This document shows positions 3,564-48,718 of a DNA stretch of 64,000 nucleotides, in pieces (positions within the stretch are counted from its first letter, which is position 1; each line of letters starts with the position of its first letter). Source of the stretch: Escherichia phage 348Ecol098PP; the sequence record OR062947.1. One strand, given 5' to 3'. The translations under genes were made by a program, and so were the position numbers. Below the pieces are notes generated by a model, which worked only from the letters and a program-made list of their open reading frames with translations, was not told the DNA's origin and made no database searches.

Positions 3564-4381
3564 ATGTAGTATATAAACTATCATTTATTAATAGAATTAA
3601 TGCTAAAACCCCACCATATTATTACATTGGAAGTAAAACCAATTGCACTTTTGATGGAACGAATATTATTGATAAAAATGGTAAATTTTATTATTCGTCT
3701 TCGTCATCTTCCGAATTTCAAAAAGCCTTATTGAAAGAAACGCCGAAAGTTGAAATATTATATTTTCAATTAGTCGGAGATGAACAAATAACTAGCATTG
3801 AAGCTGAATTTCAAAAGAATATAGAAAAAGATGTATGGAATAAAGAGTATTTTAATTTAGCATATGCTGATGGCAAATTTACGACATATGGTATTTCTCC
3901 TTCTAAAGAAACTAGAGAAAAACAATCAATAACCATGATTAAAAGAAATCGTAATAAAGGCAAAAATCATGGATTTTATGGAAAGCATCATACTAATTTA
4001 GCCAGAAAGAAAATATCAGAAGCTTCTAAAAAATACTGGAAAGAAAATCCGCATCGTGGATTTTCGCATACAAAGGAAGCTAAAATTAAAATTGGAATTT
4101 CATCTTCTATCAGGCATAAAGGAAGTGGAAATCCGATGTATGGTGTAAAACCTTGGAAAACTCCGAACGCAATTAAATCTGGTACTTGTATATTATGGTT
4201 AAAATACGCAGAAATTTTATATGATTATTTAGGTCCAGATTTTAAAAGTAAATCATCTATTTTTGCGGATTTAAACTTACCGAAATTTAGAATTGATAAT
4301 TTCATCAAAAGGTTTAAAATGGGTTGGAACCCATATTTAGACGAAGAATTTCAAAAGGATAAATTAGAATTATGTCTTTAG
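3560..4381 (+). CDS. freestanding homing endonuclease-like protein (GIY-YIG-like N-terminus, NUMOD-like repeats)
   Basis: VYKLSF...YYIGSKTN near N-terminus; repeated GKNHGFYGKHHT / GSGNPMYGVKPW modules; sits between 49 and nrdD. Confidence 0.6.
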   Translation: MNVVYKLSFINRINAKTPPYYYIGSKTNCTFDGTNIIDKNGKFYYSSSSSSEFQKALLKETPKVEILYFQLVGDEQITSIEAEFQKNIEKDVWNKEYFNLAYADGKFTTYGISPSKETREKQSITMIKRNRNKGKNHGFYGKHHTNLARKKISEASKKYWKENPHRGFSHTKEAKIKIGISSSIRHKGSGNPMYGVKPWKTPNAIKSGTCILWLKYAEILYDYLGPDFKSKSSIFADLNLPKFRIDNFIKRFKMGWNPYLDEEFQKDKLELCL

Positions 4382-6189
4382 AGAAAGATGTTTTAAATTT
4401 TATTTCAAATAAAGATAAAGAATTAAATACCGAAAACGCCAACAAAGATTCTCGTGTCTTTCCAACAAAAAGAGATTTAATGGCCGGTATTGTTTCTAAA
4501 CATATCGCTTGTCGTATTCTTCCAAGTCATATTGTAAATGCCCATAATGTTGGATTAATTCATTTTCATGATTTAGATTACAGTATATCATTGCCTTTTA
4601 CTAATTGCTGTTTAGTAGATTTAAAAGGAATGCTTGAGAATGGATTTAAATTAGGCAATGCTCAAATTGAAACGCCTAAATCGATTGGTGTTGCTACTGC
4701 AATTATGGCACAAATTACTGCACAAGTTGCTTCTCACCAGTATGGCGGAACTACATTTGCGAATGTAGATAAAGTACTTTCTCCTTATGTTAAACGCACA
4801 TATGCAAAACATATTGAGGATGCAGAAAAATGGCAAATCGCTGATGCGTTGAATTATGCTCAATCTAAAACAGAAAAAGATGTCTATGACGCATTTCAAG
4901 CTTATGAGTATGAAGTAAATACTCTCTTTAGTTCAAACGGACAAACGCCTTTTGTAACAATTACATTTGGTACGGGAACTGACTGGACTGAACGAATGAT
5001 TCAGAAAGCAATTTTGAAAAATCGTATTAAAGGTCTTGGTCGTGATGGGATAACTCCTATTTTCCCTAAGCTTGTTATGTTCGTTGAAGAAGGTGTTAAT
5101 CTTTATAAAGATGATCCGAACTATGATATTAAACAGCTTGCTCTAGAGTGCGCAAGCAAAAGAATGTATCCTGACATTATTTCGGTTAAGAATAATAAAG
5201 CTATTATCGGTTCTTCAGTTCCTGTTTCTCCAATGGGCTGCCGTAGTTTCTTGAGTGTATGGAAAGATTCGACTGGCAATGAAATTCTTGATGGACGTAA
5301 TAATCTTGGTGTTGTAACACTGAATCTTCCTCGTATCGCATTAGATTCTTATATTGGAACCCAGTTCAATGAACAGAAATTTGTTGAATTATTCAATGAA
5401 CGAATGGATTTATGTTTTGAAGCATTGATGTGCAGAATTAGTTCCTTAAAAGGAGTTAAAGCGACTGTTGCTCCTATTCTTTACCAAGAAGGTGCATTCG
5501 GGGTTCGTCTTAAACCTGATGACGATATAATTGAGTTATTTAAAAACGGTAGAAGTTCAGTGTCTTTGGGATACATTGGTATTCACGAATTGAATATTCT
5601 TGTCGGTCGTGATATTGGACAAGAAATTTTAACTAAAATGAATGCTCATCTTAAACAGTGGACTGAAAGAACCGGATTTGCTTTTAGTTTATATTCTACT
5701 CCTGCTGAAAACCTTTGTTATCGCTTCTGTAAACTTGATACAGAAAAATATGGAAGCGTAAAAGATGTTACCGATAAAGGTTGGTACACTAACAGTTTCC
5801 ACGTTTCAGTAGAAGAAAATATTACTCCGTTTGAAAAGATTTCTCGTGAAGCGCCGTATCATTTCATTGCGACAGGCGGTCACATTTCTTATGTTGAACT
5901 TCCAGATATGAAAAACAATTTAAAGGGACTTGAGGCTGTCTGGGATTATGCTGCACAACATTTAGATTATTTTGGTGTTAATATGCCAGTAGATAAATGT
6001 TTTACATGCGGAAGTACCCATGAAATGACTCCTACTGAAAACGGATTTGTTTGTTCAGTTTGCGGAGAAACTGATCCTAAAAAGATGAACACCATAAGAA
6101 GAACATGCGGTTATTTGGGAAATCCGAACGAACGCGGATTTAATCTCGGTAAAAATAAAGAAATCATGCATAGGGTTAAACACCAATGA
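4372..6189 (+). CDS. nrdD: anaerobic ribonucleoside-triphosphate reductase NrdD (uninterrupted, no intron)
   Basis: 605 aa continuous ORF; very high similarity to T4 NrdD recalled from memory; C-terminal glycyl-radical region RRTCGYLG. Confidence 0.95.
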   Translation: MSLEKDVLNFISNKDKELNTENANKDSRVFPTKRDLMAGIVSKHIACRILPSHIVNAHNVGLIHFHDLDYSISLPFTNCCLVDLKGMLENGFKLGNAQIETPKSIGVATAIMAQITAQVASHQYGGTTFANVDKVLSPYVKRTYAKHIEDAEKWQIADALNYAQSKTEKDVYDAFQAYEYEVNTLFSSNGQTPFVTITFGTGTDWTERMIQKAILKNRIKGLGRDGITPIFPKLVMFVEEGVNLYKDDPNYDIKQLALECASKRMYPDIISVKNNKAIIGSSVPVSPMGCRSFLSVWKDSTGNEILDGRNNLGVVTLNLPRIALDSYIGTQFNEQKFVELFNERMDLCFEALMCRISSLKGVKATVAPILYQEGAFGVRLKPDDDIIELFKNGRSSVSLGYIGIHELNILVGRDIGQEILTKMNAHLKQWTERTGFAFSLYSTPAENLCYRFCKLDTEKYGSVKDVTDKGWYTNSFHVSVEENITPFEKISREAPYHFIATGGHISYVELPDMKNNLKGLEAVWDYAAQHLDYFGVNMPVDKCFTCGSTHEMTPTENGFVCSVCGETDPKKMNTIRRTCGYLGNPNERGFNLGKNKEIMHRVKHQ

Positions 6190-9352: not shown

Positions 9353-9576
9353 GCGTATTAACAGAAACTTTGATTAATGACCTGCGTCTAGCTGGTTACG
9401 AAGTTGGTACAAATAGCCTAGGTCTTCCTCAGATTGAAGGGCCTGGATTTATTCTAGAATACGAATTCAAACAATGGTGGTTATATGCTACGGTTGACGA
9501 TGCGTTGAATATTGATTTCGTTGACCAATTTGATTCGTTGGATGCTGCCTTATTTGCAGCAAAGGAAATAGAATGA
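9349..9576 (+). CDS. hypothetical acidic protein
   Basis: ORF track; ATGA coupling. Confidence 0.55.
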   Translation: MSVLTETLINDLRLAGYEVGTNSLGLPQIEGPGFILEYEFKQWWLYATVDDALNIDFVDQFDSLDAALFAAKEIE

Positions 9577-9731
9577 AACTATCTTGAATCGCTATAACCG
9601 AAGAAAAGTTTGGTGAATTTTAAGTCGACAACTTTATGAAAGTTACGTATCTTTGATAGTATCTCGTGCTTTAAGATAGGTCTCTAAATATTATGATATA
9701 ATAGACCTATGAATTGAGCCAAGAGGTACTT

Positions 9732-10289
9732 ATGACTGAACAAAAACCTAAAAATAACTATGTGAATAATAAAGAGCTTCTCGCCGCTATAATCGAGTGG
9801 AAAAAGGAGCTCTTAAATAATAAAGACCCAAACAAAATTATTCGTCAGAATGATACCATCGGTTTAGCAATTATGCTTATCGCCGAAGGCCTGTCCAAAC
9901 GTTTCAACTTTTCAGGATATACCCAGTCTTGGAAGCAGGAGATGATTGCAGATGGGATTGAAGCCTCTATTAAGGGACTTCATAATTTCGACGAAACTAA
10001 GTACAATAACCCACATGCATACATAACTCGAGCTTGTTTTAATGCCTTTGTCCAACGTATCAAAAAAGAACGTAAGGAAGTTGCAAAGAAATATAGTTAC
10101 TTCGTTCATAATGTCTACGACAGTCATGACGATGATATGGTAGCGTTGGTAGATGAAACGTTTATTCAAGACATCTACGATAAAATGACGCATTATGAAG
10201 AATCCGCTTATAAAGCTCCTGGGGCTGAAAAGAAGGAAGTTGTTAGCGATTCGCCTAGTTTGGATTTTTTATATGAGGATGACAATTGA
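9732..10289 (+). CDS. 55: late-transcription sigma factor gp55
   Basis: NYVNNKELL...[48 protein letters not shown] matches T4 gp55; ATG 9732 after AAGAGG RBS. Confidence 0.92.
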
Positions 10290-10488
10290 CATCTCTAACT
10301 ACTTAGAAGAACCTTTTGACGAAGCAATCCCTTATTTGGTAAAACTGTTGGGTCGTGAATTTAAAATTAATTTTGACATCGACCCTTTGAACCCACATGA
10401 CGTGTCATTTTCGATAAATGGGACTCCGGTTGAGTATGAGTTCTGTATTGAAGAGGATGGACGTTTTTATTTTAATTTAATGAGATAA
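10273..10488 (+). CDS. hypothetical protein
   Basis: ATG 10273/10279 overlapping gp55 stop; ORF-track frame. Confidence 0.45.
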
Positions 10489-10489
10489 T

Positions 10490-10813
10490 ATGACTACCGA
10501 GATTATTGAAAATAAAGAAGCAGAAGATGCAGTAGCTAAAATGCTACAAGAAATCCAAAAGAAAAATGAAGCTGAAGCACGTAAAAAATCCGAAAAGATT
10601 CTTAAAAAGAATCGTTTTGAACTAAACCGTCTTTATGCTCATGCTCAAGAAGCAGCAATTCAAAACAACTTCGAAGCTTACGAATATGCTATTAAGAAAT
10701 CTCGGGATATTCTACGACAACCATATAACGACAAGCTAATTAAAATCCAGTGGGTTACTACTCGTCAGGCTATTGAGGACATCATTAATGGCGCTAGTTC
10801 AAACAAAGTTTAA
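10490..10813 (+). CDS. hypothetical protein (helical, K/E-rich)
   Basis: ORF track. Confidence 0.6.
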   Translation: MTTEIIENKEAEDAVAKMLQEIQKKNEAEARKKSEKILKKNRFELNRLYAHAQEAAIQNNFEAYEYAIKKSRDILRQPYNDKLIKIQWVTTRQAIEDIINGASSNKV

Positions 10814-10994
10814 ACGTCTGAAGCTGAACGCAGGGTTCACCCTTAAATTGGGAGGTCCTCTTTGTGTTAAAATCTCTGAAAAGGAATATCACGACTGTTC
10901 TATTACAGAAATTTGTCCGCCTATTGTAAAGGCAGACCCAAAACAACTCGTGTGGGTTGATTCATTTCAAGTTAAGAAATGGTGGAAACGATGA
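10788..10994 (+). CDS. hypothetical protein
   Basis: ATG 10788 in ORF-track frame. Confidence 0.45.
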   Translation: MALVQTKFKRLKLNAGFTLKLGGPLCVKISEKEYHDCSITEICPPIVKADPKQLVWVDSFQVKKWWKR

Positions 10995-11033
10995 GAGAAA
11001 TCGATTTAGGTATTTTCTGAGAGGTGCTTATGC

Positions 11034-11207
11034 ATGACGAACATCCCGACTTCTGAAAATTTCGATAAAATCCGTAAAGGCAAAGCAGAAAGAATGAGAC
11101 GTTTTAAAGAGTCTTATGATAAAGCTAAAGCCGAAGGAACTATTACATACAAGCCCATTCGATTTAAAAGTTCAAATGAGCCTCTGTACGGTGTACTATG
11201 TGGATAG
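11034..11207 (+). CDS. hypothetical small protein (57 aa)
   Basis: manual translation; GAGAGG RBS 9 nt upstream; followed directly by terminator. Confidence 0.4.
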   Translation: MTNIPTSENFDKIRKGKAERMRRFKESYDKAKAEGTITYKPIRFKSSNEPLYGVLCG

Positions 11208-11230
11208 GAACTCTTCGGAGTTCCTTTTTT
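11207..11230 (+). terminator. rho-independent terminator (UUCG tetraloop hairpin + T6)
   Basis: GGAACTC-TTCG-GAGTTCC-TTTTTT. Confidence 0.65.
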
Positions 11231-11253
11231 GCTTTATAAACGGATGATAGAAT
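11230..11253 (+). promoter_or_regulatory. middle (MotA-dependent) promoter candidate upstream of gene 47
   Basis: MotA box TGCTTTA, 11-nt spacer, TAGAAT -10. Confidence 0.5.
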
Positions 11254-11276
11254 GAATTAACTAATGAGGAAATAAT

Positions 11277-12296
11277 ATGAAAATTTTGCACTTAGGCGAC
11301 TTCCATATCGGAGTCAAACAAGATGACCCATGGGTTCAAGATATTCAACGTGACGGTATTCGTCAAGCAATTGAATACTCTAAGAAACACGGGATTAAAA
11401 CTTGGATTCAGTACGGTGATTGGTTTGACGTCCGTAAAGCAATAACACATCGTACAATGGAATTCAATCGTGAAATCGTTGATATGATTTCTAAAGCAGG
11501 CATTCACGTTCATGTCACGATAGGAAACCATGACATGGCGTTTAAGAATACAATAACACCTAACACTGTTTCTGAATTGTTAACTCAATTTGAAAACTTT
11601 ACTATTTACGAGCATCCAACTACTGTAGATTTTGACGGATGTCTGATTGATATCGTTCCATGGATGTGTGAAGAAAATACAGGTGAAATCTTAGAGCACA
11701 TCAAGACTTCTTCTGCAGCGTATTGTGTTGGGCACTGGGAACTGAACGGCTTTTATTTCTATAAAGGAATGAAGTCTCATGGGCTTGAACCTGATTTCTT
11801 AAAGACCTATAAACAAGTCTGGTCCGGCCACTTCCACACAATCTCTGAAGCTGCTAACGTCAAATATATTGGGACACCATGGACCCTTACTGCAGGTGAT
11901 GAGAACGACCCGCGCGGATTCTGGGTATTTGACACTGATGTTGAACGTATGGAATTTATTCCTAATGAAACAACATGGCATCGACGAATCACTTATCCGT
12001 TTAAAGGCAAAATCAATTATTCTGATTATACTAATCTAGCAGTACGTGTTATAGTATCAGAAATTGATTCAGAGTTGACTAAGTTTGAATCTGAACTTGA
12101 AAAAGTAGTTCACTCTCTTCGTATGGTTTCTAAAGTTGATAACAGTGTTGAATCTGATGATGACCAGGAAATCGAGATTAAATCACTTCAAGATATCATT
12201 AAAGAATATATTGACGCGATTCCAGATATCTCAGACGAAGATAGAGAAGCGCTGGTCAAATATTCCAACGAACTTTATATTGAGGCAACACAATGA
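11277..12296 (+). CDS. 47: recombination endonuclease subunit gp47 (Mre11/SbcD-like)
   Basis: 339 aa; N-terminal HLGDFH phosphoesterase motif, GNHD; synteny with 46. Confidence 0.92.
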   Translation: MKILHLGDFHIGVKQDDPWVQDIQRDGIRQAIEYSKKHGIKTWIQYGDWFDVRKAITHRTMEFNREIVDMISKAGIHVHVTIGNHDMAFKNTITPNTVSELLTQFENFTIYEHPTTVDFDGCLIDIVPWMCEENTGEILEHIKTSSAAYCVGHWELNGFYFYKGMKSHGLEPDFLKTYKQVWSGHFHTISEAANVKYIGTPWTLTAGDENDPRGFWVFDTDVERMEFIPNETTWHRRITYPFKGKINYSDYTNLAVRVIVSEIDSELTKFESELEKVVHSLRMVSKVDNSVESDDDQEIEIKSLQDIIKEYIDAIPDISDEDREALVKYSNELYIEATQ

Positions 12297-12550
12297 CTTT
12301 AGATGAATTTAACAATGCTGGTCTCAGGCTTGAAGTCGAAATGGACGTTAAAGATGATGATGGATTCGAGAACACTATCAAGTATTGGATTGAGCCATTA
12401 CGCGTTGAAGGCAATGAAGTTAAAGCAGTTCATGTCTGCACCGACTGGGCTATTGAATTTAGCTTTAATATAATGGACAACGATACTCCTGGCTCTATTC
12501 TTAAAATGGCTGAAGCGTGTATTGAGGACGCGTATAATGACGAAGACTGA
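12293..12550 (+). CDS. hypothetical acidic protein
   Basis: ORF track; ATGA coupling to 47. Confidence 0.55.
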   Translation: MTLDEFNNAGLRLEVEMDVKDDDGFENTIKYWIEPLRVEGNEVKAVHVCTDWAIEFSFNIMDNDTPGSILKMAEACIEDAYNDED

Positions 12551-12776
12551 TTACGAAATCCATCGTCATGAATTTAGTATTGGTGACGGTTATATTGGTG
12601 TCGTTGAATGGGCTGAGAATTACGAGGAATCAACTCCTCGTTTCTTTGGAACAATGTATGTTACCTGTGAGTACGCGCCAGGTGTTGTTATATATGCAGA
12701 ACTAGATGAATATTTTGCTGATAGAGATGACATGTTAAAATATGTAGAGGACTTCATTCGAAGAGAATACATATGA
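12537..12776 (+). CDS. hypothetical protein
   Basis: ATG 12537 in ORF-track frame. Confidence 0.5.
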   Translation: MTKTDYEIHRHEFSIGDGYIGVVEWAENYEESTPRFFGTMYVTCEYAPGVVIYAELDEYFADRDDMLKYVEDFIRREYI

Positions 12777-14461
12777 AATCATTTAAATTAAATCGTGTTC
12801 GTTATCAAAACATCATGTCGGTAGGTGGGAATCCTATTGACATCCAATTAGATAAAGTCCAAAAGACATTAATCACTGGTAAAAATGGTGGTGGTAAATC
12901 TACGATGTTAGAAGCCATTACTTTCGGACTTTTCGGTAAACCATTTCGTGATGTTAAGAAAGGGCAAATCATTAATAGCACGAACAAGAAAGAGCTCTTA
13001 GTTGAGCTTTGGATGGAATTCGATGGTAAAAAATACTTCATTAAACGTGGCCAAAAGCCCAATATTTTCGAAATCTCCGTTGACGGTGTTCGTCTCGATG
13101 AATCTGCCAGCAGTCGTGACTTCCAAGAAGAATTTGAACGTAGCATCGGAATGTCATACGCGTCTTTTAAACAAATCGTTGTGCTTGGGACGGCAGGGTA
13201 TACCCCTTTCATGGCTCTTAGCACCCCTGCTCGTAGAAAACTTGTCGAAGACCTTTTAGAAGTCGGCACACTCGCTGAAATGGATAAAATCAATAAGTCT
13301 CAAGTTCGAGAACTTAATTCCCAGGGACAAGTTCTCGATGCCAAGAAAGATGGTGTTATCCAACAAATTAAGATTTATAACGAGAATATCGAACGTCAAA
13401 AGAAATTATCTGGTGATAATGTAGCGCGTCTACAGAATATGTATGATGACCTAGCCAAAGAAGCTCGTTCATTAAAAGCAGAAATCGAAGAAGCTAATGA
13501 GCGACTACTTAATATCGTTCTTGATGAAGACCCTACTGAGGCATTCAACAAGATCGGACAAGAAGCATTCTTGATTAAATCTAAAATCGACTCATATAAC
13601 AAAGTTATTAAGATGTATCATGACGGTGGCACATGTCCTACTTGTGCGTCACAGTTGCACCAGGGTGACCCTATTGTCTCTAAGATTACCGATAAGCTTC
13701 ATGAATGTAATCACTCATTCGAGCAACTTACATGTCACAGAGATAATCTGAGTGTCCTAGTGGACGAATATAGAGCTAATGTTAAGACTAAACAGGACCT
13801 TGCATCTGATATTCGTACCAAGAAACAAGCAATGATTGCCACTATTGATAAAGCTAAGAAAGTTAAAGCTGCAATAGAACAAGCCTCGGCGGAATTTATC
13901 GACCATGCCGATGAGATAGCTTTGCTTCAAAAAGAACTTGATAAAATCATTAAAACAAAATCAGATATCGTTCTTGAAAAATACCATCGTGGTATTATCA
14001 CAGATATGTTAAAAGATTCTGGTATTAAAGGTGCTATCATTAAAAAATACGTGCCTCTGTTCAACAAGCAGATTAACCATTATCTTAAAATCATGGAAGC
14101 TGATTACGTGTTTTCTATTGACGAAGAATTCAATGAATCTATAAAATCACGTGGCCGCGAAGAGTTCAGTTATGCTTCATTTAGTCAAGGTGAAAAAGCA
14201 CGTATCGATATCGCGTTATTGTTTACATGGCGAGATATTGCTGAAAAGGTCTCTGGTGTTAGAATCAATACATTAATTATGGACGAAGTCATGGATTCCG
14301 CGACTGATTCTGAAGGTATTAAAGCTATTTCAACAATTCTTAACTCTCTAACCGATGCAAACGTGTTTATAATTAGTCACAGAGACCATGACCCACAAGC
14401 TTATGGACAGCATTTGCAAATGAGCAAAGTTGGACGATTTACTGTAATGAAAGCCTCTTAA
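12773..14461 (+). CDS. 46: recombination endonuclease subunit gp46 (Rad50/SbcC-like ATPase)
   Basis: 562 aa; Walker A GKNGGGKST, zinc hook CPTC, signature/Walker B near C-terminus. Confidence 0.92.
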   Translation: MKSFKLNRVRYQNIMSVGGNPIDIQLDKVQKTLITGKNGGGKSTMLEAITFGLFGKPFRDVKKGQIINSTNKKELLVELWMEFDGKKYFIKRGQKPNIFEISVDGVRLDESASSRDFQEEFERSIGMSYASFKQIVVLGTAGYTPFMALSTPARRKLVEDLLEVGTLAEMDKINKSQVRELNSQGQVLDAKKDGVIQQIKIYNENIERQKKLSGDNVARLQNMYDDLAKEARSLKAEIEEANERLLNIVLDEDPTEAFNKIGQEAFLIKSKIDSYNKVIKMYHDGGTCPTCASQLHQGDPIVSKITDKLHECNHSFEQLTCHRDNLSVLVDEYRANVKTKQDLASDIRTKKQAMIATIDKAKKVKAAIEQASAEFIDHADEIALLQKELDKIIKTKSDIVLEKYHRGIITDMLKDSGIKGAIIKKYVPLFNKQINHYLKIMEADYVFSIDEEFNESIKSRGREEFSYASFSQGEKARIDIALLFTWRDIAEKVSGVRINTLIMDEVMDSATDSEGIKAISTILNSLTDANVFIISHRDHDPQAYGQHLQMSKVGRFTVMKAS

Positions 14462-15174
14462 TGAGGCTTATGTTTACAGTTATCAAAATGCCAACGACGC
14501 ATATTAGCAGGGATCCCTATTTTATCGCAATGAGGACATTTAATTTTCTTGTCCTCTTTTTTCTTTCTGTTAGGATTTGATTTACAGAATTTTATATGCG
14601 GCTTTAACGCCGATAACTTAGTAGTTAAGCCACAAAACGGACAAGAATCTTCTTTCCAAATTTTCGTGGCCATGGTTTTAATTATTTTATCTTTTGTTTC
14701 TTGATCAAGTTTTACTATTTTAGGCGTAGGGCCTTGTTTACAGTTATCAAAATGCCAACGTCTCATGTTTCCTTCAGTGCCGGTTAAACCGCAGTGTGGA
14801 CATGTAATCTTTGGTTTATTTTTTGCCGACTCAGACATTTTCTTACGAGTTTCAGCAGTGAATTCTTTGTTCTTTTGAACTTCTTGATTCTTACGTCGAA
14901 GCCATCCAAATAATTTGTTTTTGCTTCTATCTGCTTTAGGAGATGAGATAGTCATCATACGAGCAGCATATATTAAAGAGGCATTATCTGGATGGATTTT
15001 TACCAACAGTTGATGTGCCAAATAATGTTCTTCCGGTGTTAAGTCTACTAAGTTTAAAGCATCATCACTTCCACCTAAACATTGTGGTATAATGTGATGA
15101 CGTTCTGTATAACCATCTAAACTTCTTGATTTAGCATTGGTGATAAGCTTTTCGTATATTGAGTTATAATTCAT
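14458..15174 (-). CDS. HNH homing endonuclease-like protein with duplicated zinc-finger modules
   Basis: HHIIPQCLGGSDDALNLVDLTPEEHYLAH HNH motif; three CPxCG modules, two ending RRWHFDNCK; convergent with gene 46. Confidence 0.75.
   Translation of the reverse strand: MNYNSIYEKLITNAKSRSLDGYTERHHIIPQCLGGSDDALNLVDLTPEEHYLAHQLLVKIHPDNASLIYAARMMTISSPKADRSKNKLFGWLRRKNQEVQKNKEFTAETRKKMSESAKNKPKITCPHCGLTGTEGNMRRWHFDNCKQGPTPKIVKLDQETKDKIIKTMATKIWKEDSCPFCGLTTKLSALKPHIKFCKSNPNRKKKEDKKIKCPHCDKIGIPANMRRWHFDNCKHKPH
14471..14496. repeat. 26-bp perfect direct repeat, copy 1 (copy 2 at 14736-14761) inside HNH gene
   Basis: TGTTTACAGTTATCAAAATGCCAACG found twice 265 bp apart. Confidence 0.85.
14736..14761. 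repeat. 26-bp perfect direct repeat, copy 2
   Basis: identical to 14471-14496. Confidence 0.85.
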
Positions 15175-15228
15175 TTACTAAATCCTTATTTGATACAGCA
15201 ACAGATAAATTGATAAACCTATTTATAT

Positions 15229-15253
15229 TGCTTTAATCTCGGAGATTTATAAT
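15229..15253 (+). promoter_or_regulatory. middle promoter candidate (MotA box + TATAAT)
   Basis: TGCTTTA, 12-nt spacer, TATAAT; the -10 overlaps the ATG of ORF 15252. Confidence 0.4.
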
Positions 15254-15443
15254 GGCGGAGTATTCAACTGGCCAACATCTTCTCGTTGTCCCTGAAATTA
15301 AAAAATATGTTTTGACCAATACGTTTTCAGGTGAAGAACATATTGTTACTGAACAAATGCTCAAATCTGCTTTTAAAGATGAGTATAATAAAATAATGTC
15401 TAATCGCAATTCCGCATGGACAGTTACCGACTTCTACGAATAA
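15252..15443 (+). CDS. hypothetical protein
   Basis: ORF track; GGAGA RBS. Confidence 0.5.
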   Translation: MAEYSTGQHLLVVPEIKKYVLTNTFSGEEHIVTEQMLKSAFKDEYNKIMSNRNSAWTVTDFYE

Positions 15444-15455
15444 GAGAGAAATAAT

Positions 15456-15872
15456 ATGTTTACTACTGCTAAAGGTTTCACTGCTGCTGATCTGAAAGTT
15501 ACTTCTATCCGTACTGACGCTAACCCACATAACCATAATCGTGTTCGTAAAGCATGGGTCCTGCATTGTGATGACGCAAGTGCTAAAAAACTCCAATCTT
15601 TGCCACAAGAAACTCGTTTTATGATTTATGGTTTTATTGATAACGATGTATCTGATATGTGGATTCATCTGATGCGTAAGCACTATAAAGATTCTATTGA
15701 AGCCGGCGGAAAAATCGTTCTTGATAAAGATGGTTCTGAGCGTCTGGAAGATTTCTACTGTGTTGATGCCGACGAACAACTAATTGCAGCTGGCGAAATT
15801 GTTGCTTCTAAAATTCCAGAATATATTGAATCACTGCCTGAAGCTATTAAAAAGCAGATGGTTGCTGCATAA
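15456..15872 (+). CDS. rpbA: RNA polymerase-binding protein RpbA
   Basis: position immediately upstream of gene 45 and strong similarity to T4 RpbA as recalled. Confidence 0.75.
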   Translation: MFTTAKGFTAADLKVTSIRTDANPHNHNRVRKAWVLHCDDASAKKLQSLPQETRFMIYGFIDNDVSDMWIHLMRKHYKDSIEAGGKIVLDKDGSERLEDFYCVDADEQLIAAGEIVASKIPEYIESLPEAIKKQMVAA

Positions 15873-15914
15873 TAAATTTGTTATAAACTTTGAATTGTCT
15901 TGAAAGGAAATAAA

Positions 15915-16601
15915 ATGAAACTGTCTAAAGATACTATCGCTATTCTGAAAAACTTTGCCTCTATTAACTCTGGCATTCTGCTGAGTCAAGGTAAATTTAT
16001 TATGACTCGTGCAGTTAATGGCACCACTTATGCGGAAGCAAATATCTCTGATGAAATTGATTTTGACGTAGCACTTTATGATTTGAATAGCTTCTTAAGC
16101 ATTTTGAGTCTAGTGTCTGATGATGCCGAAATTTCAATGCACACCGATGGCAATATTAAAATTGCAGATACACGTTCCACAGTTTATTGGCCTGCCGCTG
16201 ACAAGAGCACCATTGTTTTTCCTAATAAGCCAATTCAATTCCCAGTGGCTTCTGTGATTACTGAAATTAAAGCCGAAGACCTTCAACAATTGCTTCGAGT
16301 TTCACGTGGTCTTCAGATTGATACAATTGCTATTACAAATAAAGATGGTAAAATTGTTATCAATGGCTATAATAAAGTTGAAGATTCTGGACTAACTCGT
16401 CCTAAGTATTCTTTGACTCTTACCGATTATGATGGTTCTAACAATTTTAACTTCGTAATCAATATGGCTAATATGAAAATCCAGCCAGGTAACTATAAAG
16501 TAATGTTGTGGGGAGCTGGTGATAAAGTTGCAGCCAAGTTTGAAAGCCCTCAAGTAAGTTATGTTATTGCGATGGAAGCCGATTCTACTCACGACTTCTA
16601 A
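15915..16601 (+). CDS. 45: sliding clamp gp45
   Basis: MKLSKDTIAILKNFASINSGI... closely matches T4 gp45 (228 aa); ATG 15915. Confidence 0.95.
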   Translation: MKLSKDTIAILKNFASINSGILLSQGKFIMTRAVNGTTYAEANISDEIDFDVALYDLNSFLSILSLVSDDAEISMHTDGNIKIADTRSTVYWPAADKSTIVFPNKPIQFPVASVITEIKAEDLQQLLRVSRGLQIDTIAITNKDGKIVINGYNKVEDSGLTRPKYSLTLTDYDGSNNFNFVINMANMKIQPGNYKVMLWGAGDKVAAKFESPQVSYVIAMEADSTHDF

Positions 16602-16634
16602 GTCAAAGCTTTACGTTTATTGTGATACGATTAT

Positions 16635-21408: not shown

Positions 21409-22044
21409 ATGAAAACTACTCCTATTACTATCGCTATTGACGCAATCATAAAACAATCTTCTTCTTTGGCCGCTATGGCCAAAGTAATTAGTCAAAACCC
21501 TGCTCGTTATAATGCTATTCTAGAAACTCTTCGACGTCCGGGACTTAGTAATTATGAAAGTCGTGTAATTATTACAGGTGTTGGTAAGAATGCTAATATT
21601 GCAACTAAAGCTTCTGAGACATTTGCTTCACTCGGTATCCCGAGTATGTACTTGAACACTGGGCATTATTCTCACGGCGATGCAGGATTCATTGCGCCTA
21701 ATGATGTGTTGATTCATATTAGTCGTTCTGGTAAAACTGAAGAAATGATAGGCGTGGCTAAGCATCTTAAAATGATTCGACCGAACGTCAAACAGATTCT
21801 GTTGCATTGTAACCCAGACATTCCACAAGAAAATGAAGCCCTTTTTGATTACTCTTTCTGTACAGGCATCGCAGTAGAGGTTGATGAGAATTCTCTGGCT
21901 CCGACTATGTCCACTACATTGTTGTTAGCGCTTATCGATACGTTTGCTATCAACCTTTCGTCTGAACGTGGATTTACCTCTAATGATTTCCTTAAGTTCC
22001 ATCCAGGCGGTGCACTAGGTGCCATGTTACGAGGCGAGCAATGA
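21409..22044 (+). CDS. SIS-domain sugar-phosphate isomerase, KdsD/KpsF/GutQ-type arabinose-5-phosphate isomerase-like (no CBS domains)
   Basis: GVGKNANIATKASETFASLGIPSMYLNTGHYSHGD, ISRSGKTEE, LAPTMSTTLLLAL, RGFTSNDFLKFHPGGALG match the API SIS-domain pattern from memory. Confidence 0.75.
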   Translation: MKTTPITIAIDAIIKQSSSLAAMAKVISQNPARYNAILETLRRPGLSNYESRVIITGVGKNANIATKASETFASLGIPSMYLNTGHYSHGDAGFIAPNDVLIHISRSGKTEEMIGVAKHLKMIRPNVKQILLHCNPDIPQENEALFDYSFCTGIAVEVDENSLAPTMSTTLLLALIDTFAINLSSERGFTSNDFLKFHPGGALGAMLRGEQ

Positions 22045-22225: not shown

Positions 22226-23911
22226 ATGAAAAAAGCTGTTATTCTTGGTGCTGGACTAGCAACTCGTTTGTATCCAATAACGCATCATATTCCTAAGGTG
22301 CTTGTTAACTATAAACAAGACACTATTCTGAGCAATTTGTATACAATTTATTCTGACCTTGGCGCAGATGAAATTATTGTAGTAGTTCATTCAAAATTTG
22401 CTGGAACTGTTCGAGCTTATTGTGAGCAAGAAGGGTTCAATGTGACTATTCGTACAGTTGATGAAGCGTATGGTTCTGCTTATGCTCTTGCTAAATTGCA
22501 CAAAGATTTAGACGGCCATAATGTAATTGTTAACTGGTGTGATATTATTCCTGATTTTGGTTCATGGTCTTGGAATGTTAACGCAATCTATGTTAAGGGT
22601 GACGAATGTCGATATAATTTCGACGGTGAAAATATCACTAACGTAGGTTCAACAGGTGGTAATGTTGTAGGAATTTACCAGTTCAAAGACTGGGAATTCT
22701 ATATGGGTTCTACCGATGAGGAAATTCATGAATACTGCAAAGGACGTGATTTCGTAGAATTCCTTTACGGCAGTGCATTCAATAAATCAGAGCTTATGAA
22801 TCTAATTGATTTAGGTGATATGCCTAAACTTGAAAAGGCTCATGAAGTTCGTGAACTTAATCGTAGTTTTAATGCAGTTGAAATTGGTGAAGAAACTGTA
22901 ACTAAATTCGCATTAACCGAACAAGGCCGAGCTCTTCAGAAAGATGAGATTTCATGGTATCTTAAAGTGAAATCAGATTCAGTTCCTCAGTTAGTTTCTG
23001 TTAATGAAAATAACTTTGAAATGGAACGCATTAAAGGTAAGCCGGCATTTGAATATATTAAATCCAAATCGAGTCTCGCTCGTCCACAAATTGTTGATGC
23101 AATTTTAGATGCACTGAAATTCAGCACAGACACTTATTTTGTAAGTCCTGAAACTGTTCGTCGTGATTTCACTAAAGAATTCTATACGAAAGTTATTGAT
23201 CGTTGTGAAAGTATTCAACCATTGATTGATTCATTTGGTAAAATAACACATGTGAACTACACTAAGATTGGGCGTCTGAAGCCAATGTTGAAACAAGCTT
23301 TAGAACACCTTATTCGTTATCATAACCGTTCTCAGGGACAGTACTCTGTTATTCATGGTGACCCGAACTTCAGTAATACTATGATTACTGATAATGGCGA
23401 AGTCAAGTTTATCGACCCTCGTGGATATTTTGGTGAAACCAAGATTTACGGGCCAAAATTGTATGATGAAGCTAAAGTGCTTTACGCTGTTTCAGGATAT
23501 GATGAATTCAACGCTAATCCGACCTGGGGGCAGTTTACTATTGATGAAACAACTTGTAATGTGACTATTAACATCAATCCATTAGTTTACAAATATGGAA
23601 AGATGAGTTCGTTTAACGAGTATCATCATTTGGCGGTGGCAATTATCTGGATTGCATTAGGTGGTTATTTCAAGAATAATCCACTTAAAGCGGTAGCCGC
23701 ATATTATAAAGGTATGGAACTTCTGACTAAGCAATTACGTAACATGGGCCGTGTACTTCAGGACGGCACCATTAGTTATGACGTAGCAGAACCTGTAACG
23801 GCTACTCTGATTACAAAAAATCCTGGTAAATGGGTACTAACTGATAAAGAAACTGGTGTTTCCTATCGTCCAATCGGTGGCGATATCACTCATCAATGGG
23901 AACGAATCTAA
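22226..23911 (+). CDS. bifunctional sugar-1-phosphate nucleotidyltransferase / sugar anomeric kinase (APH/choline-kinase fold) fusion
   Basis: N-terminal AVILGAGLATRLYPIT..PK nucleotidyltransferase signature; C-terminal IHGDPNFSN and FIDPRG kinase motifs. Confidence 0.75.
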   Translation: MKKAVILGAGLATRLYPITHHIPKVLVNYKQDTILSNLYTIYSDLGADEIIVVVHSKFAGTVRAYCEQEGFNVTIRTVDEAYGSAYALAKLHKDLDGHNVIVNWCDIIPDFGSWSWNVNAIYVKGDECRYNFDGENITNVGSTGGNVVGIYQFKDWEFYMGSTDEEIHEYCKGRDFVEFLYGSAFNKSELMNLIDLGDMPKLEKAHEVRELNRSFNAVEIGEETVTKFALTEQGRALQKDEISWYLKVKSDSVPQLVSVNENNFEMERIKGKPAFEYIKSKSSLARPQIVDAILDALKFSTDTYFVSPETVRRDFTKEFYTKVIDRCESIQPLIDSFGKITHVNYTKIGRLKPMLKQALEHLIRYHNRSQGQYSVIHGDPNFSNTMITDNGEVKFIDPRGYFGETKIYGPKLYDEAKVLYAVSGYDEFNANPTWGQFTIDETTCNVTININPLVYKYGKMSSFNEYHHLAVAIIWIALGGYFKNNPLKAVAAYYKGMELLTKQLRNMGRVLQDGTISYDVAEPVTATLITKNPGKWVLTDKETGVSYRPIGGDITHQWERI

Positions 23912-24297
23912 TGCACCGTGTAGAAAACATGCTTAATCTTTGTTTTGATGTCGATGATTGTATAACAGAGTGGAATAACAATCGTGATTACGTGAACTTC
24001 AAACCAGACGTCGAAATGGTGTCTGCCATTAATGCCCTATATGATGCAGGGCATACCATAACGCTTTACACTGCTCGCGGTATGAAGTCAGTAGGTCCTG
24101 GTCGTATAGCAATTGACATTCTCCCAAGTCTGATTCAGAACTTGGCAAACATTGGCTTGAAGTACCATAATTTGCTAACACATAAACCAGTATATGATTG
24201 GATTATCGACGACAAAGCTATGCGTCCTGACGAATTCAAAGCTCTTATGAATAAAGGCGAATTCGAAACATTTAAATCATATAAACCGAATCTATAA
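23911..24297 (+). CDS. HAD-superfamily phosphatase
   Basis: motif I FDVDDCIT near N-terminus; TAATG overlap with upstream stop; ORF-track frame. Confidence 0.65.
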   Translation: MHRVENMLNLCFDVDDCITEWNNNRDYVNFKPDVEMVSAINALYDAGHTITLYTARGMKSVGPGRIAIDILPSLIQNLANIGLKYHNLLTHKPVYDWIIDDKAMRPDEFKALMNKGEFETFKSYKPNL

Positions 24298-24351: not shown

Positions 24352-25512
24352 ATGAATACCTTTAAAATCGGAACGAATTTTGATTTAGCTCTTCTTGATA
24401 AAATCGTAGAGCTCAATAAAACTTATCCTAATAGCTTGATAAACGAAGTATACGGCTCTACAAGAGAAATGGCTTTTGTAGCAGCCAGACCTGATTTTAG
24501 GCTTCCTGACGTTGACAAAAAGATGTTAGAAGATTACGTTAAACGTTGTAACGAATTAGGTATTTGCTTTAACTATACACTCAACACGATAAATCCTGGT
24601 TCAAAAAGAGAACTAGTTGAGTGGAAGAAGAAAGCTATTCAGGATTATGTTCAGTATCTTTGGTCAATAGGCGTATGGCGTATTACTATCGCTAACCCTG
24701 TTGTTATGGAAATTGTTCGTGAAGTCAATAAAGACATTGAGATTGAAGTTTCAACAATTCTACATGTCGATGCTGTAACTCAAATCAAATACTTGCATGA
24801 CCAATATAATATCAAAAAGGTCTGCTGTGGAATTCATAAGAACCGTTCAGTTTCTTTCCTGAAGCGTGCAGCAGAGTTTTGCAATAAGAACAATATAATA
24901 TTTGAAGTTCTCGTAAATGAATTCTGCTCTAATGCTGGTAAAGGGTATACAACACATTGTAGTTATCGTGACTCTTGCTATATTTTCCATAGCACCGATG
25001 TTACAGTAGATGATGCCAAATCCTTAAATGGATATCCTATGCAGCACTGTATTAAAGCTCGTGATACAGACCCATTTAACTGGTTGAGAACTCGTTTTGT
25101 TCGTCCTCAAGATTTGAAACTTTATAATGATATTGGTATCACTCAATTCAAAGTTTCAGGACGTACAGGTAGCACCGACTACATTTTGAAAGTTCTTGAA
25201 GCTTATGCTTCTGAAAAGTTTGAAGGTAATTTGTTGGAATTGTGGAAGCCTTTAGAGACTATTTTCACTCTTGAAAATGAGACCGAGTTTTCACATACGG
25301 TAAATATTGAAACCTCTTTGTTAGATGGCTTTTTAGAAAAAAGGTGGTTCAAACATCCAGATTTCGATTGTGCTAATGAAATCTGCGGGACGACGTGTAC
25401 ATATTGTGAAAGATATTATAAACGTCAGTTATCTAAAAATGGGTTAGCAGAAAACTCTATATCTATTATTGATATAACTAACTCTGATGACGCTTTGAGG
25501 TACCCGGAATGA
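24352..25512 (+). CDS. peptidase-U32-family (TIM barrel, Cys-rich) protein
   Basis: NEVYGSTREMAFVAARPDF, ICFNYTLNTINPG, EFCSNAGKGYTTHCSYRDSC resemble U32 proteins as recalled from memory. Confidence 0.5.
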   Translation: MNTFKIGTNFDLALLDKIVELNKTYPNSLINEVYGSTREMAFVAARPDFRLPDVDKKMLEDYVKRCNELGICFNYTLNTINPGSKRELVEWKKKAIQDYVQYLWSIGVWRITIANPVVMEIVREVNKDIEIEVSTILHVDAVTQIKYLHDQYNIKKVCCGIHKNRSVSFLKRAAEFCNKNNIIFEVLVNEFCSNAGKGYTTHCSYRDSCYIFHSTDVTVDDAKSLNGYPMQHCIKARDTDPFNWLRTRFVRPQDLKLYNDIGITQFKVSGRTGSTDYILKVLEAYASEKFEGNLLELWKPLETIFTLENETEFSHTVNIETSLLDGFLEKRWFKHPDFDCANEICGTTCTYCERYYKRQLSKNGLAENSISIIDITNSDDALRYPE

Positions 25513-25790: not shown

Positions 25791-26507
25791 ATGGGAAAAC
25801 ATAACACAATGAAATATATTAAAGCCGCAGATTTTCAATCCGCATTTAAAGCTGTCAATCGTGAAATTTTAGAAAATCCACAGTTCGTTACTGACTCTCG
25901 TATTGGACGTTGTAATGAAATTGGGTCTATGACAGTAGTTGTTGATACCCCTTCATCATTCAAAATGACCGACCCACGTATTAATCGCATCTCTTATGAA
26001 TATGCTGAAGATTTCTGGAAATTTATGATTTCTGGTGGTACTGATGCAGAAGAAGCATTTAAGGCATATCCTAACGTTGCTAAATTTATTTCTAAACCTA
26101 AATCAGATGCTTTGCCTGCAAACTTCAACACTTTCTACGGTCCACGAATTGCGGCCCAGTTACCAGCTCTTCTCAAAGAACTTAAAGAGAAACCTAATTC
26201 ACGAAGAGTTGTGTTTCAAATTCTTGAAAGTTCAGATCAGGCTTTGCTTGATTCGGATGAAACACTTGAATATCCATGTACTGACTCAGTGACTTATTAT
26301 ATTCGTGATGGTAAGCTTTATACCCACTGTCATATGCGTTCTCAGAACTGTGCTGTTGTTATGCAGTTGGATTTTTATCTCCAAGGAAAATTACTTCATT
26401 ATATCGCTAACGAATGTGGTGTAGAAGTTGGTGATTATACTCATACCATGGTAAGTGCCCATGTGTTTGAACGTGATTTTGATTATGTTAAAGGATTCCT
26501 TGACTAA
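25791..26507 (+). CDS. 42: dCMP hydroxymethylase (thymidylate-synthase fold)
   Basis: PNSRRVVFQI and YPCTDSVTYYIRDGKLYTHCHMRSQN align with the SRR and catalytic Cys regions of T4 gp42. Confidence 0.8.
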   Translation: MGKHNTMKYIKAADFQSAFKAVNREILENPQFVTDSRIGRCNEIGSMTVVVDTPSSFKMTDPRINRISYEYAEDFWKFMISGGTDAEEAFKAYPNVAKFISKPKSDALPANFNTFYGPRIAAQLPALLKELKEKPNSRRVVFQILESSDQALLDSDETLEYPCTDSVTYYIRDGKLYTHCHMRSQNCAVVMQLDFYLQGKLLHYIANECGVEVGDYTHTMVSAHVFERDFDYVKGFLD

Positions 26508-27406
26508 TGGCTATTTTCCGCGTACCTATCTTGAGTATGCGGTCTTATGAAACTGGACAGTATGCTATCCTTAAGGATGGCAACTTCCAACTTCATTTGC
26601 ACCGTGCTAATCCGGGTGATGTGATTACATATCCACGTAATGCATCTGATATTAAAGAATGTGAACGTCTTTTCCCAGAATTTAAGTTTGTTCCATTATG
26701 GTATAAAGATAACGCATATAACACTCGTAAATATTTCTGGTCTGAAAATGAATTTGTGGTTGATTCATTAATTGATTATTATGATTGTGATTTTCTAATC
26801 ACAGATATCACTGGATATGACGGTACTTTTGACGTAGAATTCAATTTCAATATCACTGCAGACCCTAATAAACCACGTTTTTATATTGACGAATTCTTAA
26901 AAACCGATATGTTGTCGGTTAATCGTTCACTTCAAACTACTGTGTTGAATAAACGTCAAAAGGAAGTGCTGGTTAACGCTGGTGCCGATGGTAATAAGAT
27001 TATCGTAACCCAGAAAGTTATACGTCCTTCCATCATGCAGCGTCTTGTAGGTGATTTGGCTCCTATTCATCTAGATGGTATTTTTCATCCATTTCGAATT
27101 AGTGATCCGTGCTATCGTTTTGAACAAGTGGTTGAATGCGCGATTCAATTAGGTCAACCGCTTTATATAACCGATCCAAATAATAGCTTCGACAGAAATA
27201 AGTATCCTGAAGAAGCGTTGATTCGAATTTTTAAACCAACTAAAACTGAGTACTATCAAATTCTTAAAGGACGACCGAAGATTCAATATTTCGAAAATCC
27301 TGAAGAAGTATTTCATCCAGGTCTTGGTGAGTTCATCTACTTTAACGCTTTAATTTCTTCGCCGTATAATATACCTAAATATGAAGATGTCGTAATCGAG
27401 GAATAA
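26507..27406 (+). CDS. hypothetical protein (299 aa) in the syntenic slot of T4 beta-glucosyltransferase; function unknown
   Basis: ORF track; TAATG coupling to gene 42; no recognisable beta-gt similarity. Confidence 0.8.
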   Translation: MAIFRVPILSMRSYETGQYAILKDGNFQLHLHRANPGDVITYPRNASDIKECERLFPEFKFVPLWYKDNAYNTRKYFWSENEFVVDSLIDYYDCDFLITDITGYDGTFDVEFNFNITADPNKPRFYIDEFLKTDMLSVNRSLQTTVLNKRQKEVLVNAGADGNKIIVTQKVIRPSIMQRLVGDLAPIHLDGIFHPFRISDPCYRFEQVVECAIQLGQPLYITDPNNSFDRNKYPEEALIRIFKPTKTEYYQILKGRPKIQYFENPEEVFHPGLGEFIYFNALISSPYNIPKYEDVVIEE

Positions 27407-27407: not shown

Positions 27408-27956
27408 ATGGCTAAAATTATTTTAGTAGATGGCCCAGATAATGCTGGTAAAACAACTTTCATTAATGACATAATGGAAATTAGTGAAAGATATGTAAAG
27501 ATTGATTTCCCTAAACGAACAGTTGATGGACGTTTCGATGTTAAGTCTCGAAATGAAGTTGGCTGTTTCGAAACGATGTTGAATTATTTAGACCCTACTA
27601 AGATTTATCTGTTAGACCGTGGATATATTAGTAACTGGGTTTATGGACGTATTCGACAAGACGCGGACTCGGTTCTTGACGTTTATGAACAGGATTATGT
27701 TCGTCTTTGCCAAAACCATGATGTGTTCACAATTATTTTAACACGTAACGAAATGACTGAAAGTTTTGAAGACGACCTTATTACTTTGTCTTCATTCGGT
27801 TTTAATACAGTCATTTCACATTTTGAAGAGTTTGCAATTCATAACAAAATCCAAACGTATCAATTACTTAATCATGATGGTGCTAACAAAGTTATAGGAT
27901 TTAATGCAAGCGAACGTAATGATTTGATTACAGAAATCATCAAATGGGCTCGTTAA
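27408..27956 (+). CDS. P-loop kinase (thymidylate/nucleoside-monophosphate kinase-like)
   Basis: Walker A ILVDGPDNAGKTTF; size 182 aa; GAGGAA RBS. Confidence 0.7.
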   Translation: MAKIILVDGPDNAGKTTFINDIMEISERYVKIDFPKRTVDGRFDVKSRNEVGCFETMLNYLDPTKIYLLDRGYISNWVYGRIRQDADSVLDVYEQDYVRLCQNHDVFTIILTRNEMTESFEDDLITLSSFGFNTVISHFEEFAIHNKIQTYQLLNHDGANKVIGFNASERNDLITEIIKWAR

Positions 27957-47617: not shown

Positions 47618-48718
47618 ATGAAAGTTATGTTTATCCCATCTCGTGCAGTCCCATTTAACCCAGAACGTGTACAAGGTGGTCTTGAAGCAGTACATTTAAA
47701 TGTGTTGAAATATCTTGTGTCCATCGGTGCTGATATTGATTATATCGGCTTTGATAATGACACATTTGGTGATTGGAAGGTTAATCATCATCCTGTTGGT
47801 CATCTGACTAAATTCAGTCTAGGTATGAGTTATACTATGGCTCGTAAGATTGTTGAACTGGCCGGCATCCATGAATACGATTTTGTTGTTACTATGGAAC
47901 CGACTAAACTAACCGTTCAGGCAATTAAAGACGCAGGTCTCTCTAAAGTTCATAAGAATTTTATGGCAACACCATTTGAACCTGTATCTCGTGGCATTGT
48001 TCAAATTTGGGACCAGACTATTCAAATTCATAAGAATGGCGGTAAGAGTTATGCTCCTACTAAAGCCTTCCGTGAATTTGAACGCAAATATTGTTATATG
48101 ACTTCAGGTCTGACTGACAAAATCGATTATGATTATTGGCGAGCAAATCCGTTGTTTGAAGCCGAAGATTATCCGGTTATTTGTTTGAATGAGAAACCTG
48201 AAGTTCTTCCGGCGACGGATCTGATTATTAGTGCACAACGTTATGACACTAAAATGCGTCGTACTGATGTTGCTCTTGAAGCGATTAAAGCACTAGGCGA
48301 AAATGGTGCAGGATACTGTCCAAGCAAATGGGCGCCACCAGCTAAATATCCTGTTATTATCGATGCTCCACACAGTGAAATCATGGAACGTCTTAAAACA
48401 GCTAAAGCACTTATTAATACGTGTCCTGACACAGGTACGGTAGAGAATAGTTCTATTGAAGCCATCTCTAAAGGTGTCCCTGTAATCCAGTTAGTTTTTA
48501 AGGATTATCCTCATGCGACATTCGAATACGACCCAGATACTGTGCGTGTAGAAATTGATTCCTCTACTCCTAAGAAAGAAGTAGTTGCGCTTTACACAAA
48601 AGCTGTATTAGAATTCACTGACACATACGAAGCTCGAGTTAAACGTGCTGAAGCAGTATGGAAGAAGTATAACCGAGATGCAGTTGTTGCGATGTGGGAT
48701 AAAATCTTCACAGCGTAA
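47618..48718 (+). CDS. GT-B-fold glycosyltransferase (GT4-like); candidate DNA hmC sugar transferase
   Basis: N-terminal MKVMFIPSRAVPFNPERVQGGLEAVHLNVLKYL and C-terminal TGTVENSSIEAISKGVPVI resemble GT4 signatures. Confidence 0.6.
   Translation: MKVMFIPSRAVPFNPERVQGGLEAVHLNVLKYLVSIGADIDYIGFDNDTFGDWKVNHHPVGHLTKFSLGMSYTMARKIVELAGIHEYDFVVTMEPTKLTVQAIKDAGLSKVHKNFMATPFEPVSRGIVQIWDQTIQIHKNGGKSYAPTKAFREFERKYCYMTSGLTDKIDYDYWRANPLFEAEDYPVICLNEKPEVLPATDLIISAQRYDTKMRRTDVALEAIKALGENGAGYCPSKWAPPAKYPVIIDAPHSEIMERLKTAKALINTCPDTGTVENSSIEAISKGVPVIQLVFKDYPHATFEYDPDTVRVEIDSSTPKKEVVALYTKAVLEFTDTYEARVKRAEAVWKKYNRDAVVAMWDKIFTA

Follow-up and report, generated by a model that had tools for sequence, protein, structure and literature searches.

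A Mosigvirus DNA segment that lacks an alpha-glucosyltransferase gene in the 55-47 interval and carries homologues of the RB69 arabinosylation genes

Results

Identity of the window

The 64-kb stretch of DNA that was analysed (the window) belongs to an RB69-like T-even phage of the genus Mosigvirus, as judged by sequence comparison with its relatives, and very probably to one that has no DNA glucosyltransferase gene and uses RB69-type arabinosylation instead. The observations behind this conclusion are the synteny with its relatives, the absence of homologues of the glucosyltransferase genes a-gt, b-gt and ba-gt, the presence of genes nearly identical to those of RB69, and the GT-B fold of the transferase that occupies the b-gt position. 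Under this reading there is no alpha-glucosyltransferase gene (a-gt) between genes 55 and 47 because the genus puts arabinose rather than glucose on its cytosines, and the phage would need no DNA glucosyltransferase because glucosyl-hydroxymethylcytosine is not made. Both the absence of the glucosyltransferases and the arabosyl-5-hydroxycytosine pathway are already known for RB69-like phages, having been published in 2018 and 2026 (PMC6024577, PMC13326640).

When positions 9700-12300 were compared by megablast, 714 phage records were matched, and the best 26 of these 714 match along the whole length with an identity of at least 99%; every one of the 26 is an RB69-like coliphage of the genus Mosigvirus, with APCEc01, PhAPEC2 and mar005P1 as examples. 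The DNA of the 55-47 interval has 99% identity to that of more than 25 Mosigvirus genomes, and in all of them it is annotated as gene 55, 4-5 hypothetical proteins and gene 47. Farther to the right, the 16.6 kb segment from 12700 to 29300 has 98.2% identity to NHEP10 and 97.8% to RB69. The gene order of the window is the nrdD/nrdG region, 55, 47, 46, 45, 44, 62, regA, 43, uvsX, 41, 61, dda, 39, rIIA and rIIB, and the 55-47 interval has the same order as that of RB69 (55, a-gt.5, a-gt.4, a-gt.3, a-gt.2, 47). This interval is the normal Mosigvirus arrangement, and there is nothing unusual inside it.

The interval between genes 55 and 47

The left border of the interval is gene 55 (9732..10289, + strand), which encodes the late sigma factor and whose product has 91% aa identity to T4 gp55 over 182 aa; the right border is gene 47 (11277..12296, + strand), coding for an SbcD-like nuclease subunit with 76% identity to T4 gp47 and a Pfam Metallophos domain. 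Between them lie four small genes, all on the + strand and all orthologous to T4 a-gt.x genes. The a-gt.5 homologue (10273..10488, 71 aa, with an alternative start at 10279) begins within the end of gene 55; its product is 47% identical to T4 a-gt.5 and 100% identical to RB69p070, and it belongs to Pfam DUF5491 and phrog_1169. The a-gt.4 homologue (10490..10813) is the largest ORF of the interval at 107 aa, with 58% identity to T4 a-gt.4, 100% identity to RB69p069 and a match to Pfam DUF2654 (E = 1e-27). Its end is overlapped by the a-gt.3 homologue (10788..10994, 68 aa; 71% identity to T4 a-gt.3), which matches phrog_1648 (E = 1e-34) and no Pfam family, and the last of the four is the a-gt.2 homologue (11034..11207, 57 aa), with 76% identity to T4 a-gt.2 and a match to Pfam DUF5486 (E = 4.5e-28). 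The four proteins have 95-100% identity to RB69p070-067.

Comparison with T4 gives pN values of 0.16-0.34 and pS values of 0.47-0.76 for the four small genes (0.34 and 0.76 for the a-gt.5 homologue), and dN/dS ratios of 0.23, 0.10 and 0.25 for the homologues of a-gt.4, a-gt.3 and a-gt.2 respectively. Since non-synonymous differences are much less frequent than synonymous ones, we regard these as real genes under purifying selection. Their PHROG matches are to families of unknown function only, Pfam and PHROG searches reveal no glycosyltransferase domain in any of the four, and a search of the literature yielded no functional data on a-gt.2 to a-gt.5. These results agree with the sequence-only reading, in which the interval was said to hold four small ORFs of at most 107 aa together with a terminator and a middle promoter, and no ORF of alpha-gt size or glycosyltransferase character; the terminator and the promoter agree as predicted patterns. 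No gene of about 400 codons lies between a-gt.2 and gene 47, the stop codon of the former and the ATG of the latter being just 69 bp apart. An Rfam search of 9500-12500 returned nothing credible, the sole match being to a snoRNA model (E = 0.81), and the late-promoter motif TATAAATA was not found in the interval. The minus-strand ORFs of the interval are 31-50 aa long, and the interval is covered by the conserved genes of the + strand.

Search for glucosyltransferase genes

The sequence-only reading called for tblastn searches with the T4 alpha- and beta-glucosyltransferases, and we have carried these out on the window and on a complete genome. Searching the whole 64-kb window with T4 a-gt (NP_049673, 400 aa) and T4 b-gt at a word size of 2 and E <= 100 gives chance-level matches for both queries, the best for a-gt having E = 1.4 and none for b-gt being better than this. 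As a stand-in for the source genome beyond the window we used NHEP10, the closest complete genome, which is 98% identical, and ran tblastn on it and the window jointly using T4 a-gt, T4 b-gt (351 aa) and the T2-type ba-gt of RB27 (280 aa). Neither T4 b-gt nor RB27 ba-gt has a match with E <= 1 in the window and the NHEP10 genome, and the sole match with E <= 1 pairs a-gt residues 18-86 (69 aa) with a 200-aa ORF of NHEP10 (L007 3334-3513) at E = 0.056. We have rejected this ORF as an a-gt homologue since it matches no Pfam family, is half as long as a GT-B enzyme, and is matched at a chance-level E value. Nothing credible was thus recovered (best E = 0.056), and homologues of a-gt, b-gt and ba-gt are undetectable in the window and in NHEP10.

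Only 64 kb of the genome is visible, and a glucosyltransferase could be imagined in the other two thirds, such that glucosylation has been kept. The short match of a-gt to the NHEP10 ORF is the one result that points in this direction, and the properties for which that ORF was rejected speak against it. A published BLASTP search of RB69 for homologues of a-gt, b-gt and ba-gt likewise found none (Thomas et al. 2018; PMC6024577), and RB69 does not make hydroxymethylcytosine, the substrate that a-gt needs (PMC13326640). We therefore consider it highly improbable that a glucosyltransferase is encoded outside the window.

Arabinosylation genes

Homologues of RB69p045-p055 and of RB69p003 are all present in the window with 97-100% aa identity, most of them in a cluster between gene 43 and uvsX on the + strand. 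Directly after gene 43 is a gene for an arabinose-5-phosphate isomerase-like protein (21409..22044; RB69p055, 99.5% identity; Pfam SIS), the role of which is assigned according to PMC13326640. It is followed by a fusion of nucleotidyltransferase-like and sugar-kinase-like parts (22226..23911), 99% identical to RB69p053 and p052 with a Pfam NTP_transferase match and weak kinase matches; this RB69p053:052 fusion has been proposed to produce the activated arabinose donor (PMC13326640). Next are genes for a small phosphatase-like protein (23896..24297; RB69p051, 99% identity), which has no Pfam match and whose function is taken solely from PMC13326640, and for a peptidase U32-family protein (24352..25512; RB69p050, 99% identity; Pfam Peptidase_U32). 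The isomerase, the NTP-transferase/kinase fusion and the phosphatase make up the sugar-nucleotide genes of the cluster.

The place of T4 gene 42 is taken by a thymidylate-synthase homologue (25791..26507; RB69p048, 99.2% identity; Pfam Thymidylat_synt), the product of which is only 25% identical to T4 gp42. The window therefore has a ThyA-superfamily protein of the RB69 gp48 type instead of a gp42-type hydroxymethylase, the activity being assigned according to PMC13326640, where RB69 gp48 is reported to synthesize 5-hydroxy-dCMP (Lee et al. 2026). The modified base also differs from that of T4, since it is 5-hydroxycytosine in the RB69 type and not hydroxymethylcytosine (PMC13326640). RB69 DNA contains mono- and di-arabinosylated 5-hydroxycytosine, which corrects the earlier assignment as arabinosyl-hmC (Lee 2026, PMC13326640), and the same DNA modification is present in the Mosigvirus NP (Durham collection paper, PMC13390438). 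A thymidylate-kinase-like nucleotide kinase gene (27408..27956; RB69p045, 99.5% identity; function per PMC13326640) lies just upstream of uvsX.

In the T4 b-gt position, directly downstream of the gene 42 equivalent, is a single ORF of 299 aa (26507..27406, + strand) that encodes the putative first DNA arabinosyltransferase (RB69p047:046), with 97-100% identity to RB69p047 and p046. Searching its sequence against PDB sequences with phmmer gives no match, and when a profile of 50 sequences was aligned to T4 a-gt and b-gt with hhalign no similarity was seen (probability < 1%, and 0.09% for b-gt), so that any relation to these enzymes would be at the level of the fold only. An AlphaFold model built with 50 homologues has a pLDDT of 95.2 and a pTM of 0.89, and its Foldseek matches are GT-B enzymes, including the retaining enzyme MshA (3c4q), and UDP-GlcNAc 2-epimerases, with E values of 4e-6 to 1e-4 and TM scores up to 0.63. 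The protein is therefore confidently modelled as having a GT-B glycosyltransferase fold, which reproduces the published assignment. The putative second arabinosyltransferase (47618..48718, + strand; 366 aa), of the RB69 ORF003c type, lies between gene 39 and rIIA and has 99.5% identity to RB69p003; it is nearly identical to PDB entries 9iqz/9ir0, described as a 'Glycosyltransferase subfamily 4-like N-terminal domain-containing protein' (E = 2.8e-249), and a literature search on the code 9iqz gave no relevant paper. Pfam finds no family for either the 299-aa or the 366-aa protein, and the glycosyltransferase assignment of both comes from structure. The window thus has both of the putative GT-B-fold DNA arabinosyltransferases of the RB69 type, gp46:47 within the cluster and gp3 beside rIIA. 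In vitro transfer has been demonstrated only for gp76 plus gp77 of DLP3 (Lee 2026; PMC13326640), and the roles of the RB69-type transferases are for this reason best regarded as proposals. It had been suggested from the sequence that the b-gt slot is replaced as well, and this is indeed so, as the stretch from gene 43 to uvsX, of which the slot is a part, holds RB69 arabinosylation genes with 97-100% aa identity, among them the 299-aa GT-B-fold ORF.

A simple scheme can be drawn in which the thymidylate-synthase homologue (25791..26507) would make 5-hydroxy-dCMP, the operon between gene 43 and uvsX would supply activated arabinose, and the two GT-B-fold transferases, one of 299 aa from the b-gt slot and one of 366 aa, of the ORF003c type, from beside rIIA, would add one or two arabinoses. 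All of the replacement genes have been identified at these two locations, 43-uvsX and beside rIIA, so the whole replacement system lies inside the window. With the chemistry and the enzyme activities taken from the published work, we infer that the source phage behaves like RB69. There are some departures from RB69. The 052/053 and 046/047 pairs are each single ORFs in the window, which is how the RB69 reference should read according to Lee 2026; a MobB-like HNH gene, absent from RB69, lies between genes 46 and 45.2 of the window; and the p049 homologue of the window is split across two reading frames.

The identification as a Mosigvirus has its main value in correct annotation, in that the DNA should carry arabosyl-5-hydroxycytosine and not glucosyl-hydroxymethylcytosine. 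DNA of this kind would predict how the phage responds to restriction systems, type IV enzymes, CRISPR and DNA glycosylases, as well as why it cannot recombine with T4.

Junction with T4 and the hairpin/Mot-box module

In T4 the gene order is 55, a-gt.5, a-gt.4, a-gt.3, a-gt.2, mobB, a-gt, 47.1, 47. The flanking genes and all four a-gt.x genes of the window are orthologous to those of T4 with about 72% DNA identity, and alignment with blastn places 9744-11240 of the window on positions 13-1456 of the T4 interval and 11275-12296 on positions 3709-4730. Homology extends from gene 55 through a hairpin and Mot box to 11240 and is picked up again at 11275, immediately ahead of the ATG of gene 47, such that a junction of 34 bp (11241..11274) replaces the 2,252-bp block of mobB, a-gt and 47.1 in T4.

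The left side of this junction coincides with a compact element. A terminator scan identified an intrinsic-terminator-like hairpin with a T-run (11206..11232, + strand), with an 8-bp stem and a UUCG loop; the hairpin itself (AGGAACTC-TTCG-GAGTTCCT) is at 11206-11225 with the T-run next to it, and the RNA fold has a predicted free energy of -13.9 kcal/mol (z = -3.86). Overlapping the hairpin/T-run element is a Mot-box middle-promoter-like site of the form TGCTTTA-N11-TAGAAT (11230..11253, + strand), located by a pattern search, which lies 24 bp before the ATG of gene 47. The pattern occurs at 13 sites in the window against an expectation of 1.55, an eight-fold enrichment, and chiefly on the transcribed strand. 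Both the terminator (11206..11232) and the middle promoter (11230..11253) are thus predictions from consensus and pattern matches.

A homologous hairpin follows a-gt.2 in T4 too, and the module after a-gt.2 is common to both phages; in T4, however, it precedes mobB, whereas in the window the predicted module directly precedes the ribosome binding site and ATG of gene 47. Hairpin/Mot-box modules upstream of gene 47 or 47.1 are also found in TG1, IME281 and CC31, as a single copy there and in the window. T4 and the Klebsiella phage Mineola have a copy of the hairpin plus TGCT-box module on each side of a-gt, and the window junction also aligns with the Mineola module downstream of a-gt.

Discussion

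Gain or loss of a-gt

The sequence-only reading was that the phage appears to have exchanged its glucosylation system for an island of genes. That no glucosyltransferase homologue is found and that the RB69 arabinosylation set is present agree with it, but exchange would imply the loss of a-gt from this slot, where four other genera lack it too. In one genome of each of the other Tevenvirinae genera that we inspected at the a-gt slot, a-gt is present in Jiaodavirus (Mineola), where it lies between a-gt.2 and 47 without mobB or 47.1; Karamvirus CC31, Tegunavirus TG1, Dhakavirus IME281 and Mosugukvirus PM2 have 55, small a-gt.x genes and 47 with no a-gt at the slot. The gene 47 match in several cyanophages spans an annotated late sigma factor gene, and 47 and 55 therefore appear to be adjacent in those phages.

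Since four other genera are without a-gt at this location, the site may originally have been empty, and we lean slightly towards this view. It is quite plausible that a-gt, together with mobB in T4, was inserted between a-gt.2 and 47 in Tequatrovirus and Jiaodavirus through PmSL recombination, and that Mosigvirus lost nothing. The slots of CC31, TG1, IME281 and PM2, the adjacency of 47 and 55 in several cyanophages, and the flanking of a-gt by two module copies in T4 and Mineola, as against a single copy in the window, TG1, IME281 and CC31, all fit an ancestral empty site, as does the published description of promoter-stem-loop modules shuffling genes in T4-like phages (PMC4122927, PMC2839356). 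Several independent losses could nonetheless leave the same distribution, which comes from a comparison of slots in one genome per genus; moreover, T4 and Jiaodavirus a-gt share only 66% protein identity, which would also fit with an old gene at the site. Alternatively, the ancestor of Mosigvirus may have had a-gt and, after gaining arabinosylation, lost it in a clean deletion when the two flanking modules recombined, in which case there was a true exchange. The breakpoints are exactly at the module, with T4 homology running through the hairpin and Mot box, stopping, and resuming at the gene 47 ATG, and such a junction is what is expected from recombination between two repeats; the alignment of the junction with the Mineola module downstream of a-gt is likewise in keeping with deletion. 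However, insertion in the other lineages leaves an identical footprint, there is no a-gt remnant in the 34-bp junction, and most of the sampled genera are without a-gt at the slot, and we consider deletion possible but rather doubtful.

The a-gt gene behaves as a cassette in that it is flanked by module copies in T4 and Jiaodavirus and is missing from other genera, with the window representing an unoccupied site. As a tentative proposal, the T-even a-gt could be viewed as a mobile cassette with repeats of the stem-loop/Mot-box middle-promoter module at its borders, and the small a-gt.x genes as unrelated to glycosylation despite their names, because phages with either sugar system retain them.

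Modular shuffling in T4-like phages has been ascribed in the literature to promoter-stem-loop modules, Mot-box versions (PmSL) among them (PMC4122927, PMC2839356), and from the positions of the breakpoints we infer that the module described here may mediate recombinational gain or loss of the genes it flanks. Its likeness to the PeSL/PmSL modules (Arbiol 2010, PMC2839356; Comeau 2014, PMC4122927) lies in the stem-loop followed by a predicted promoter of the Mot-box type at the border of a variable cassette, and in its duplication around a-gt in T4 and Mineola; a-gt bounded in this way by terminator/middle-promoter modules would be a further example of the published model of cassette shuffling. 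The published PeSLs have mainly early sigma-70-type promoters and are in hyperplastic regions, and the PmSLs are from the Vibrio phage nt-1, whereas the modules around the a-gt slot are of the Mot-box type.

The a-gt borders and the segment between genes 43 and 42

A module composed of a hairpin and a predicted Mot-box promoter is present twice in T4 and in Jiaodavirus, flanking the alpha-glucosyltransferase gene (a-gt), whereas phages lacking a-gt contain it only once. The paired copies lie on both sides of a-gt at approximately 14585-14625 and 16680-16740 in the T4 sequence piece (L002) and at 3900-3950 and 5200-5250 in that of the Klebsiella phage Mineola (L008); the single copy in the window is at 11206-11253. 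The module looks like a cassette border of the PmSL type, the stem-loop and middle promoter combination proposed for cassette shuffling in T4-like phages (cf. PMC4122927).

We note a weak match (28% identity, E = 0.056) between residues 18-86 of the T4 a-gt product and a 200-residue hypothetical protein of NHEP10, a complete genome ∼98% identical to the window. The gene (L007, a piece of NHEP10, 2998-3600) lies outside the window and its product has no Pfam family; with such an E value, the match is probably due to chance and we do not regard the protein as an a-gt homologue.

Homologues of imm.1 and imm (33% and 64% identity to T4, respectively) are located at 31681-32350, downstream of gene 41, whereas T4 has both of them in its 43-42 interval. 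The changes to that interval in the window thus go further than an exchange of sugar genes.

Putative homing endonuclease genes

An HNH-type ORF of 238 codons (14458-15174, minus strand) is situated between genes 46 and 45.2, oriented oppositely to both, with a late-promoter motif TATAAATA closely upstream (15220-15227, minus strand). Its product and the N-terminal half of MobB from T4 share 43.5% identity. The ORF is carried by NHEP10, ST0 and F2 but is missing from RB69 and mar005P1, and Dhakavirus IME281 has a homing endonuclease gene of equal size in the same slot, on the opposite strand; the ORF in the window appears to be an inserted mobile homing endonuclease gene. A 273-codon ORF with a NUMOD3 motif (3560-4381, plus strand) is flanked by gene 49 and nrdD and lies in a segment for which NHEP10 gives no BlastN match. 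It probably encodes another homing endonuclease, one that varies among strains.

Differences from the RB69 annotation

The RB69p049 homologue (25509-25746), which has the U32 gene on one side and the ThyA homologue on the other, appears to carry a frameshift, as the 79 residues of RB69p049 align to it in two different reading frames and a 53-codon ORF is all that is left. Single ORFs of 561 codons (22226-23911) and 299 codons (26507-27406) correspond to gene pairs 053/052 and 047/046 of the RB69 reference annotation, consistent with Lee 2026 (PMC13326640), in which 52:53 is handled as one two-domain protein and the 46/47 split is attributed to sequencing error.
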